From a virus (Duplodnaviria > Heunggongvirae > Uroviricota > Caudoviricetes), in IMG/VR virus record IMGVR_UViG_2645727715_000002: 36,924 nucleotides of DNA; one strand, written 5' to 3'. Positions 32,638-36,121 of this stretch are shown here, piece by piece (the stretch's first letter is position 1; each line of letters begins with the position of its first letter). Below the pieces are notes generated by a model, which was not told the origin of the DNA, did no database searches, and saw only the letters and a program-made list of their open reading frames with translations. Both the position numbers and the translations under genes were made by a program.

Positions 32638-35600
32638 ATGAGTAAAGGCAGCAGTAAGGGGCATACCCCGCGCGAAGCGAAGGACAACCTGAAGTCCACG
32701 CAGCTGCTGAGTGTGATCGATGCCATCAGCGAAGGGCCGGTTGAAGGTCCGGTGGACGGATTAAAAAGCGTGCTGCTGAACAGTACGCCGGTGCTGGACA
32801 GTGAGGGGAATACCAATATATCCGGCGTCACGGTGGTGTTCCGGGCCGGTGAGCAGGAGCAGTCACCGCCGGAGGGATTTGAATCCTCCGGCTCCGAGAC
32901 GGTGCTGGGTACGGAAGTGAAATATGACACGCCGATCACCCGGACCATCACGTCGGCAAACATCGACCGTCTGCGCTTTACCTTCGGTGTACAGGCACTG
33001 GTGGAAACCACCTCAAAGGGGGACCGGAATCCGTCGGAAGTCCGCCTGCTGGTTCAGATACAGCGTAATGGTGGCTGGGTGACGGAAAAAGACATCACCA
33101 TTAAGGGCAAAACCACCTCGCAGTATCTGGCCTCGGTGGTGGTGGATAACCTGCCGCCGCGCCCGTTCAATATACGGATGCGCAGGATGACGCCGGACAG
33201 CACCACAGACCAGCTGCAGAACAAAACGCTCTGGTCGTCATACACCGAAATCATCGATGTGAAACAGTGCTACCCGAACACGGCACTGGTCGGCGTGCAG
33301 GTGGATTCGGAGCAGTTCGGCAGCCAGCAGGTGAGCCGTAATTATCATCTGCGCGGGCGCATTCTGCAGGTGCCGTCGAACTATAACCCGCAGACGCGGC
33401 AATACAGCGGTATCTGGGACGGAACGTTAAAACCGGCATACAGCAACAACATGGCCTGGTGTCTGTGGGATATGCTGACCCATCCGCGCTACGGCATGGG
33501 GAAACGTCTTGGTGCGGCGGATGTGGATAAATGGGCGCTGTATGTCATCGGCCAGAATTGCGACCAGTCGGTGCCGGACGGCTTTGGCGGCACGGAGCCG
33601 CGCATCGCCTGTAATGCGTACCTGACCACACAGCGCAAGGCGTGGGATGTGCTCAGTGATTTCTGCTCGGCGATGCGCTGTATGCCGGTATGGAACGGGC
33701 AGACGCTGACGTTCGTGCAGGACCGACCGTCGGATAAGGTGTGGACCTATAACCGCAGTAATGTGGTGATGCCGGATGATGGCGCGCCGTTCCGCTACAG
33801 CTTCAGCGCCCTGAAGGACCGCCATAATGCCGTTGAGGTGAACTGGATTGACCCGGATAACGGCTGGGAGACGGCAACAGAGCTTGTGGAGGACACGCAG
33901 GCCATCGCCCGTTACGGTCGTAACGTCACGAAGATGGATGCCTTTGGCTGTACCAGCCGGGGGCAGGCACACCGCGCCGGGCTGTGGCTGATTAAAACGG
34001 AGCTGCTGGAAACGCAGACCGTGGACTTCAGCGTGGGTGCTGAAGGGCTTCGCCATGTACCGGGCGATGTCATTGAAATCTGCGATGATGACTATGCCGG
34101 TATCAGCACCGGCGGGCGCGTGCTGGCGGTGAACAGCCAGACCCGGACGCTGACGCTCGACCGTGAAATCACGCTGCCATCCTCCGGTATCACGCTGATA
34201 AGCCTGGTTGACGGAAGTGGCAATCCGGTCAGCGTGGAGGTCCAGTCCGTCACCGACGGCGTGAAGGTAAAAGTGAGCCGTGTTCCTGACGGCGTTGCCG
34301 GATACAGCGTATGGGGGCTGAAGTTGCCGACGTTGCGCCAGCGCCTGTTCCGCTGTGTGAGTATCCGTGAGAACGATGACGGCACGTATGCCATCACTGC
34401 CGTGCAGCATGTACCGGAAAAAGAAGCCATCGTGGATAACGGGGCGCACTTTGACGGCGACCAGAGCGGCACGGTGAATGGTGTCACGCCGCCAGCGGTG
34501 CAGCACCTGACTGCCGAAGTCACCGCAGACAGCGGGGAATATCAGGTGCTGGCGCGATGGGACACACCGAAGGTGGTGAAGGGCGTGAGCTTCCTACTCC
34601 GTCTGACCGTGACAGCGGATGACGGCAGTGAGCGGCTGGTCAGCACAGCCAGGACGACGGAAACCACATACCGCTTCACACAACTGGCGTTGGGGAACTA
34701 CAGGCTGACAGTCCGGGCGGTAAATGCGTGGGGACAGCAGGGCGATCCGGCATCGGTATCGTTCCGGATTGCCGCACCGGCAGCGCCGTCTCGGATTGAG
34801 CTGACACCGGGATATTTTCAGATAACCGCCACGCCGCATCTTGCGGTTTATGACCCGACGGTACAGTTTGAGTTCTGGTTCTCGGAAAAACGGATTGCTG
34901 GTATCAGGCAGGTTGAAACCACAGCGCGCTATCTTGGCACGGCGCTGTACTGGATAGCCGCCAGTATCAATATCAGGCCGGGCCATGATTATATATTTTT
35001 ACGTTCGCAGTGTGAACACCGTTGGCAAATCGGCATTCGTGGAGGCTGTTGGTCAGCCGAGTGATGATGCATCCGGCTATCTGGATTTTTTCAAAGGCGA
35101 GATAGGGAAAACCCATCTGGCTCAGGAGCTGTGGACGCAGATTGATAACGGTCAGCTTGCGCCTGACCTGGCTGAAATCAGGACGTCCATTACGGATGTC
35201 AGCAATGAAATCAAGCAGACCGTCAATAAGAAACTGGAAGACCAGAGTGCGGCAATTCAGCAGATACAGAAGGTTCAGGTTGATACAAATAATAACCTGA
35301 ACAGCATGTGGGCTGTGAAGCTGCAGCAGATGCAGGACGGACGCCTTTATATCGCGGGTATTGGTGCCGGTATTGAGAACACCCCTGACGGCATGCAGAG
35401 TCAGGTGCTGCTGGCGGCGGACAGGATTGCGATGGTTAATCCTGCGAATGGCAACACAAAACCGATGTTTGTTGGTCAGGGCGATCAGATATTCATGAAC
35501 GACGTGTTCCTGAAACGCCTGACGGCCCCCACCATTACCAGCGGTGGAAATCCACCGGCATTTTCCCTGACACCGGACGGAAAGCTGACTGCTAAAAATG

Positions 35601-36121
35601 CGGATATCAGTGGCAGTGTGAATGCGAACTCCGGGACGCTCAACAACGTCACGATTAATGAGAACTGTCAGATTAAGGGGAAACTGTCAGCCAATCAGAT
35701 TGAAGGCGATATTGTCAAAACGGTCAGCAAGTCTTTCCCCCGCACGAACAGTTATGCCAGTGGCACCATCACGGTAAGAATCAGTGATGATCAGAAGTTT
35801 GACCGGCAGGTCATGATACCTCCAGTGTTATTCCGCGGTGGTAAGCATGAGAATTTCAACAGTAATAACCAACAGTCATACTGGTATTCAACCTGCCGGT
35901 TAAGAGTGACCCGCAATGGTCAGGAGATTTTTAATCAGTCCACGACGGATGCTCAGGGCGTATTTTCCTCAGTTATAGATATGCCTGCCGGACAGGGGAC
36001 GCTGACACTGACATTCACCGTATCTTCATCAGGAGCGAATAACTGGACACCAACAACCAGTATCAGCGATCTGCTGGTTGTGGTGATGAAAAAATCCACA
36101 GCAGGTATCAGTATCAGCTGA
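32638..36121 (+). pseudogene. J: Central tail fibre / host-specificity protein J, interrupted by a +1 frameshift near 34990-35005; C-terminal receptor-binding region differs from lambda J
   Basis: ORF 32638..35064 matches lambda J up to …INIRPGHDY; ORF 34985..36121 continues with [20 protein letters not shown]… in the +1 frame; the last roughly 300 residues keep lambda-like blocks but are substantially divergent. Confidence 0.85.

Follow-up and report, generated by a model that had tools for sequence, protein, structure and literature searches.

Our analysis indicates that the tip attachment protein (J) of this lambdoid E. coli prophage is a mosaic, in which a lambda-type hub with its Ig/FNIII domains, a phage 21-type shaft and a common beta-prism appear to be joined to a receptor-binding domain of the A8/phi330-type allele. 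By its identity to characterized relatives, this domain is most probably an OmpC-binding allele and not a LamB-binding one; we place the probability of this explanation as a whole, mosaic origin and OmpC included, at roughly 0.9. The window (the whole stretch of DNA analyzed, 36,924 nucleotides of IMG/VR record IMGVR_UViG_2645727715_000002) carries J downstream of the tape-measure, M, L, K and I genes and upstream of lom and stf. In the DNA alignment the gene is 3484 nt long, one more than the 3483 nt of intact relatives, and as assembled it is read in two frames that share 80 nt. The stf gene is truncated by the contig end, and a porin gene has the Q-like antiterminator on one side and the lysis genes on the other. 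The features concerned are:

32638-36121, plus strand: J gene, tip attachment protein or central tail fiber, 3484 nt with one 1-nt insertion
32638-35064, plus strand: upstream J frame as assembled, 808 aa (785 native J residues plus 23 out-of-frame residues, then a stop)
34993, plus strand: inserted, frame-shifting A at codon 785/786, in the second Ig-like domain, from DNA alignments
34985-36121, plus strand: downstream J frame from an internal ATG, 378 aa, back in the native J frame from 34994
36189-36788, plus strand: lom, Ail/Lom outer-membrane protein (Pfam Ail_Lom, E = 1.5e-120), the usual gene 3' of J
36855-36924, plus strand: 5' end of stf, side tail fiber, starting MAVKISGVLKDGTGKPVQNCTIQ, positioned as in PhiR70_1, Chlobot and STEC409
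13219-14316, minus strand: prophage-borne porin of the Lc/NmpC type (Pfam Porin_1, E = 4.7e-157)

Removal of the extra base yields a protein of 1160 aa with the complete gpJ domain set, represented by six J-specific Pfam families (E-values 4e-31 to 3e-43); the two gene-caller fragments contain the same families, divided between them, and the 785 native residues of the upstream frame cover the hub domains and the first Ig/FNIII domain and extend partway into the second. The domain set and operon position thus both fit a lambda-type gpJ; the gene as assembled is not the single uninterrupted frame of such a protein. We use the domain names of the lambda gpJ structure paper (PMC11101478). Along the repaired protein, the Pfam families (the first six lines) and the modules recognized by comparison with other J proteins are:

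J residues 86-207: FNIII-A_GpJ
J residues 330-498: Phage-tail_3 (hub)
J residues 610-714: Ig_J
J residues 716-818: Ig_J_second
J residues 872-1000: Phage_Tail_Tip
J residues 1036-1160 (window 35744-36118): Ig_GpJ_C
35051-35473, plus strand: alpha-helical shaft, residues 805-945, of the phage 21 / PhiR70_1 type
35474-35644, plus strand: beta-prism (central straight fiber) block, residues 946-1002
35645-36118, plus strand: receptor-binding domain, residues 1003-1160, A8/phi330-type allele

Residues 1-800 are approximately 97% identical to the J proteins of lambda, phage 21 and 434. A preliminary description of this DNA, made from the letters alone, had held that the distal part of J differs from lambda beyond a conserved block and that 35090-35420 also diverges, and alignment bears out this picture throughout. 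The latter interval falls in the shaft, which is 40% identical to lambda and exceeds lambda's in length, with gaps of 5, 16 and 7 residues on the lambda side of the alignment; the beta-prism block that lies between the two divergent stretches is essentially identical to lambda (95%) and is 86-95% identical across the J proteins compared; and the last ~158 residues, ending STAGISIS, are 43.6% identical to lambda with indels in loop regions, far below the 95% taken as the threshold against such a difference. The beta-prism block is likely to be a recombination junction between modules, and the junction of the A8 chimera falls inside it. Lambda J (NP_040600; structures 8XCJ, 8XCK and 8IYK), whose receptor is LamB, occupies the same gene position and has the same domain order, and differs from window J in the loop lengths of its receptor-binding domain and, it would appear, in its receptor. 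A lambda-type LamB-binding domain would call for high identity to the lambda C-terminal domain and to its four receptor-contact loops, and the value of 43.6% does not fit this.

The receptor is settled by the identity of this domain to characterized alleles and not by its distance from lambda. The last 161 residues of J are identical (161/161) to the PDB chain 'A8 gpJ 713' of entries 9WCA and 9WCB, the second of which also holds three 'Outer membrane porin C' chains according to its entry listing; our literature search found no paper describing either entry. A8 (Brodel et al., Nature 2024, PMC11338833) is a chimera in which lambda gpJ ends in a C-terminus taken from the gpJ of a natural E. coli phage. 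The GpJ A8 DNA in the supplement to that paper matches window positions 35460-36121, save for a small number of base differences and for letters dropped in machine reading. Chimeras including A8 were screened on a lamB-deleted recipient, and A8 delivers DNA via OmpC with an efficiency that varies with the ompC variant supplied (PMC11338833). As A8 retains the lambda shaft and prism, OmpC specificity can be assigned to the C-terminal domain that was exchanged; the shaft, and with it the divergence at 35090-35420, is not required for this specificity, since A8 with a lambda shaft still uses OmpC. Whereas A8 is engineered, window J is a natural gene with the longer, phage 21-type shaft and a frameshift.

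The Stx2a phage vB_EcoS_phi330 (phi330; PV189401) provides a natural counterpart, with 98.7-98.8% identity in the receptor-binding domain. The difference lies within one loop only (TSTY, against TNSY here), and both hairpins predicted to contact OmpC, one of them ANNWTP, are the same as in window J. OmpC is the phi330 receptor: the phage forms no plaques on the Keio delta-ompC strain, Plac-ompC restores them, and, of the 54 outer-membrane-protein mutants in the panel, all other strains were lysed (PMC12502783). The rest of the phi330 protein is distant (66% over residues 1-800 and 60% in the shaft), and by this measure the same type of domain sits there on a different lambdoid tail lineage. 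While OmpC dependence is published for A8 particles and for phi330, the virions of this prophage would be expected to behave in the same way. Phage 434 J (OL657227) also has OmpC as its receptor and a hub that is 98% identical, but identity drops to only 46% in the receptor-binding domain, and phi330 and phage 434 do not share conserved loop contacts (PMC12502783); phage 434 J represents an independent OmpC-binding allele. For the closest phage isolates, PhiR70_1, PhiR57_1 and Chlobot, the literature search found no publication.

The main alternative for the receptor comes from phage 21. Its J (OL657228) is also 1160 aa long, with a hub 97%, a shaft 96.5% and a receptor-binding domain 82% identical to ours; 29 of the 158 domain residues differ, clustered in the PRTNSY and NQSTTDAQG loops, while I1025 and both predicted contact hairpins are common to the two proteins. 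Phage 21 natively uses LamB, and from these shared features it could be argued that the present domain still binds LamB and has diverged from lambda by neutral drift. We regard this as very improbable and reject the analogy on the A8 and phi330 data, since the identical A8 domain works in lamB-deleted cells with an efficiency set by the ompC variant, phi330 forms no plaques on delta-ompC cells even though lamB is present in them, and 9WCB contains the identical domain together with OmpC. The same comparison bears on how the receptor was first called. The preliminary description had suggested a different receptor on the grounds of divergence from lambda; its conclusion is upheld by the A8 and phi330 alleles, but its reasoning is insufficient, because phage 21 is about equally distant (its domain is 47% identical to that of lambda) yet uses LamB. 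Moreover, I1025T alone gives phage 21 the use of OmpC (PMC11336670), so that receptor choice in the J family can hinge on few residues. That particular route is ruled out here, as window J keeps I1025, and the wider risk of a few-residue switch is removed for window J only by its complete (100%) identity to A8. Up to three porins serve as receptors for evolved variants of phage 21 (the J mutations are not named in the Borin et al. preprint), and the J protein of Gifsy-1 is reported to bind OmpC, BtuB and OmpX; on these precedents the domain might use further outer-membrane receptors in addition to OmpC. We consider this unlikely, given that phi330 lost plaquing solely on the ompC mutant among the 54 strains and that the Gifsy-1 C-terminal region is only 18% identical to that of lambda.

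The frameshift that the preliminary description had placed at 34990-35005 is confirmed as a single inserted A at 34993. The window reads GATTAT[A]TATTTTTAC, where PhiR70_1, phage 21 and E. coli STEC409 read GATTATTATTTTTAC and lambda and Chlobot read GATTATTACTTTTAT, all without the extra base. Complete E. coli genomes that match the 101-nt stretch around the site number 4,256; the insertion is absent among the matches listed, the best of which agrees at 100 of 101 bases. The only record of the truncated J product is that of contig LEKZ01000085.1 (assembly GCA_001038025.1); the frameshift is present in the sequence but private to this draft contig. The late genes of the contig hold at least seven frame-breaking single-base indels, J included; the other six (18261, 18342, 20227, 23175, 27785 and 28374) affect portal and gpD once each and terL and gpH twice each. 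Of these six, five occur in A or T runs of at least 5 bases and one shortens a C run. The J insertion, unlike most of the others, lies outside any homopolymer run. We also observe that the frame-breaking indels are confined to late genes, a clustering not obviously expected if errors arose uniformly.

Three origins of the extra base were weighed, and we think that it is probably a consensus or assembly error in the draft contig. A real, recent inactivating mutation in a decaying, non-inducible prophage, whose virion genes are rotting while lysogeny-expressed genes (immunity, lom, porin and bor/iss) are retained, is a possibility to which we attach clearly less belief. Such decay would account for seven frame-breaking indels across five virion genes alongside early-region ORFs that look intact, for the fact that all five homopolymer frame-breaking indels (5/5) fall in the late part, where only 43% of the runs of at least 5 bases lie (P ~0.015), and for a J insertion that is not a homopolymer event. 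Nonsense mutations, deletions and IS insertions are all absent, however, and indels also occur in intergenic T runs (36158 and 36836) and at the bor/iss start (16376); the variant is confined to a single draft assembly. In E. coli, only a small fraction of spontaneous mutations are normally indels. Over the last 4 kb (32844-36924), by contrast, the window differs from STEC409, its nearest relative, by 3 one-base insertions and only 2 substitutions, far from the expected ratio. Taken together, the distribution of the indels is suggestive in both directions. A programmed +1 ribosomal shift producing full-length J has some superficial appeal in the 80-nt overlap of the frames and the T-rich stretch TATATATTTTTAC that adjoins the site, and in lambda tail assembly a -1 shift yields gpGT. 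We give it practically no credence: a programmed site would be conserved, whereas every homologue examined has one uninterrupted ORF of 3483 nt or 3399 nt without the extra base, and the insertion is not conserved among the listed genome matches either. The J frameshift is thus a caution on the quality of the draft contig rather than a biological finding.

These comparisons suggest a model for the action of the repaired protein, in which the receptor-binding domain would dock as a trimer on the trimeric porin OmpC instead of LamB. Receptor contact may then spread the three domains, twist the beta-prism, flip the shaft and open the tail tip for DNA ejection; this triggering mechanism is taken over by analogy from the lambda gpJ-LamB structures. 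The gene as assembled cannot give a working fiber, the extra A breaking the frame inside the second Ig-like domain.

The porin gene of the prophage is 98.0% identical in nucleotide sequence to PA-2 lc and 99.8% identical to phage 434 nmpC, phage 434 also carrying a porin gene of this nmpC/lc type. The PA-2 Lc porin has been linked with OmpC exclusion, a point for which the literature search yielded no citable paper. With due reserve, we put forward a set of linked proposals that we hold to be, jointly, doubtful. The phage 21-type (LamB) and A8-type (OmpC) domains, 82% identical with 29 differences, may be a natural and closely related allele pair. As both predicted OmpC-contact hairpins are identical in the two types, the natural LamB-to-OmpC switch would be encoded outside them, either by the loops PRTNSY and NQSTTDAQG or by residues with an effect on trimer stability, as with the laboratory change I1025T; if true, the pair would offer a compact system for mapping a natural change of porin in lambdoid phages. 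An OmpC-type J and a PA-2-like lc porin in one prophage could, in addition, amount to matched self-exclusion.

The A8/phi330-type allele is among the commonest in E. coli. Across 5,426 complete E. coli genomes, 872 records carry it at no less than 99% nucleotide identity and 651 more at 95-99%; 44 phage records have it at 98% or above, and it also occurs in long-tailed Stx1a, Stx2a and Stx2c phages. Because these Stx phages carry the allele, variation in OmpC and in its expression is relevant to their spread. The OmpC-type variant is thus both common and already characterized, the answer for this prophage is already known, and the result matters little beyond correct annotation. For the family, it illustrates that the C-terminal allele of J reveals which receptor a lambdoid prophage uses where an identical characterized allele exists; divergence from lambda, taken by itself, predicts the receptor poorly.

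The distal part of J, the gene for the tip attachment protein (gpJ), is in this lambda-like E. coli prophage an already characterised and widespread OmpC-binding allele on an ordinary mosaic gene, which confirms the observation that it departs from lambda. The window comprises contig LEKZ01000085.1 in full (36,924 bp; draft assembly GCA_001038025.1). Genes for recombination, immunity and replication occupy its left side and a lambda-type head and tail operon its right side, where the sequence breaks off within stf, 70 nt past the stf start codon.

32638-36121, + strand: J, from reading frames and from Pfam matches of the repaired protein
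36189-36788, + strand: lom, the next gene after J
After lom, + strand: start of stf, only the 5' end present

Relative to the prophage of E. coli STEC409, two intergenic T runs, one following J and one following lom, are each expanded by one base (T6 to T7, at 36158 and 36836); both lie 3' of GC-rich inverted repeats and have the look of terminator tails.

Removal of a single extra base, discussed below, gives a repaired J of 1160 amino acids, which matches all six J-specific Pfam families, the last being Ig_GpJ_C at residues 1036-1160. With domains named after the lambda gpJ cryo-EM paper (PMC11101478), comparison by module shows where the protein follows lambda and where it does not.

Amino acid identity of the repaired window J to other J proteins, by module
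Hub and Ig/FNIII (1-800): lambda 97.2%, phage 21 97.4%, 434 97.9%, phi330 66.1%, PhiR70_1 97.2%
Alpha-helical shaft (805-945): lambda 40.4%, phage 21 96.5%, 434 41.1%, phi330 60.3%, PhiR70_1 98.6%
Beta-prism (946-1002): lambda 94.7%, phage 21 89.5%, 434 91.2%, phi330 86.0%, PhiR70_1 93.0%
Receptor-binding domain (1003-1160): lambda 43.6%, phage 21 81.6%, 434 45.8%, phi330 98.7%, PhiR70_1 100%

These identities bear out every descriptive statement on J in the preliminary description: the distal part differs from lambda J (43.6% identity in the receptor-binding domain), and the second divergent region, at 35090-35420, corresponds to the shaft (40.4%). Judged by its sequence, J is a textbook mosaic whose exchange points would lie in the conserved prism. 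A nearly identical receptor-binding domain (99%) sits on the 66%-identical hub of phi330, and the module therefore moves between lambdoid lineages.

The last 161 residues of J are 100% identical to the chain "A8 gpJ 713" of PDB entries 9WCA and 9WCB, the latter of which also lists three "Outer membrane porin C" chains. A8 belongs to a pair of chimeras in which the C-terminal part of a natural E. coli phage gpJ was joined to that of lambda (Brodel et al., Nature 2024, PMC11338833). [quoted passage not shown] The GpJ A8 DNA in the supplement of that study aligns to window 35460-36121, except for a few base differences and letters lost in machine reading. A8 keeps the shaft and prism of lambda, which places OmpC specificity in the C-terminal domain that was exchanged; this specificity does not depend on the divergent shaft at 35090-35420. 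A second, independent line of support is phi330, a long-tailed Stx2a phage whose domain is 98.8% identical to that of the window and differs in one loop only (TSTY against TNSY in the window). This phage formed zero plaques on the Keio delta-ompC strain, was rescued by Plac-ompC, and lysed all other strains among 54 outer-membrane-protein mutants (PMC12502783). In its record (PV189401; 1571-4986 of the locus compared) the deposited 'tail fiber protein' has 1042 amino acids and a separate 116-aa ORF overlaps its 5' end; the J gene there looks split or mis-started, which is why the residue numbers of the phi330 paper are 118 below the 1160-aa numbering. The identity to the A8 domain and the OmpC dependence of both A8 and phi330 support the earlier suggestion of a receptor different from that of lambda and identify it as OmpC, an assignment predicted for this prophage from domain identity; the answer for this allele is already published.

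Distance from lambda does not decide the receptor, because the receptor-binding domain of phage 21 is only 47% identical to that of lambda and yet its native receptor is LamB (PMC11336670; Borin et al. preprint); identity to characterised alleles does. In phage 21 the single change I1025T confers OmpC use and further changes OmpF use (PMC11336670; Borin et al. preprint); I1025 is retained in the window J. The phage 21 domain (4945-5418 of the phage 21 locus compared) differs from window 35645-36118 at 29 of 158 residues, concentrated in the PRTNSY and NQSTTDAQG loops. [quoted passage not shown]

If the lambda gpJ-LamB structures are a guide, the distal loops of three Ig-like domains would be inserted into the porin trimer; on binding, the domains would spread, the prism twist and the helical shaft flip, and opening of the hub would allow exit of the tape measure protein and DNA. 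OmpC use is reported for the identical domain, while the triggering steps we infer from lambda.

The frameshift in J noted in the preliminary description is a single inserted A. At 3484 nt the gene is one base longer than its intact counterparts in close relatives (3483 nt), and DNA alignment places the extra A at 34993, in the context GATTAT[A]TATTTTTAC; it is absent from PhiR70_1, Chlobot, phage 21, lambda and STEC409. The insertion leaves an 808-aa frame (785 native and 23 out-of-frame residues) and an overlapping 378-aa frame, the one listed in that description. The break falls within the second Ig-like domain, and the fibre therefore could not be rebuilt from two separate polypeptides. 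Among the matches listed from 4,256 complete genomes with the 101-nt stretch the extra A was not seen, the best listed match being 100/101 bases, and the shortened product is recorded for contig LEKZ01000085.1 only. Programmed frameshifting is ruled out, since the extra base is not conserved in the listed matches and the relatives compared. Comparison with the STEC409 prophage, the nearest relative, gave further frame-breaking one-base indels:

18261 and 18342: terL
20227: portal
23175: gpD
27785 and 28374: gpH

The terminase, portal and tape-measure genes are split by them and gpD is extended; five of the six lie within A or T runs of at least 5 bases. The bor/iss-like lipoprotein gene (16093-16386, - strand) has lost one base from a 5' A run at 16376, which puts its MKK start out of frame and leaves an internal ATG as the only possible start (MLFSAALAMLITGC...). 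An N6-adenine methyltransferase gene (10750-11337, + strand) has, near 11021, 2 nt more than in strain XH990, where the annotation marks it as frameshifted; the copy in the window is possibly intact.

The frameshift in J belongs to the draft contig, and we put at about 70% the probability that the extra A and the other indels are consensus errors of the assembly. Three one-base insertions against two substitutions over 32844-36924, relative to STEC409, argue for such errors, as does the absence of stop codons, deletions and IS elements. The J insertion, however, lies outside any homopolymer, and the frame-breaking indels are confined to late genes, with the ORFs of the early region apparently intact; both points speak for real decay of the prophage, which we regard as the less likely reading.

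The A8-type domain is commonplace among J alleles in E. coli. A search of 5,426 complete E. coli genomes gave 872 records with the 486-nt domain at 99% identity or higher and 651 further records at 95-99%; in the phage collection it occurs at 98% protein identity or higher in 44 records (18 of those at 100%). The phage carriers include Stx1a-, Stx2a- and Stx2c-converting phages, CP-1639, YYZ-2008, Lys8385Vzw, 2H10, Chlobot, Turner, PhiR30_1 and PhiR70_1, and one record is named as a Salmonella phage. The prophage also encodes a porin:

13219-14316, - strand: porin gene, 365 aa (Porin_1), between a Q-like antiterminator and the lysis genes

Its DNA is 98.0% identical to lc of phage PA-2 and 99.8% identical to the IS5-disrupted nmpC of phage 434. 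The receptor of PA-2 is OmpC, and in lysogens the Lc porin of this phage reduces OmpC and OmpF levels, which brings about superinfection exclusion. Phage 434 uses OmpC (PMC12502783). Among phage records with such a porin at 97% identity or higher, the A8-type domain is present in Chlobot, Turner, PhiR30_1 and PhiR29_2. Porin alleles at a greater distance (85-88%) accompany J of the phage 21 type and of other types. The link between porin and A8-type J is suggestive but not exclusive, and the combination of a porin with an OmpC-type J may represent receptor-matched superinfection exclusion.
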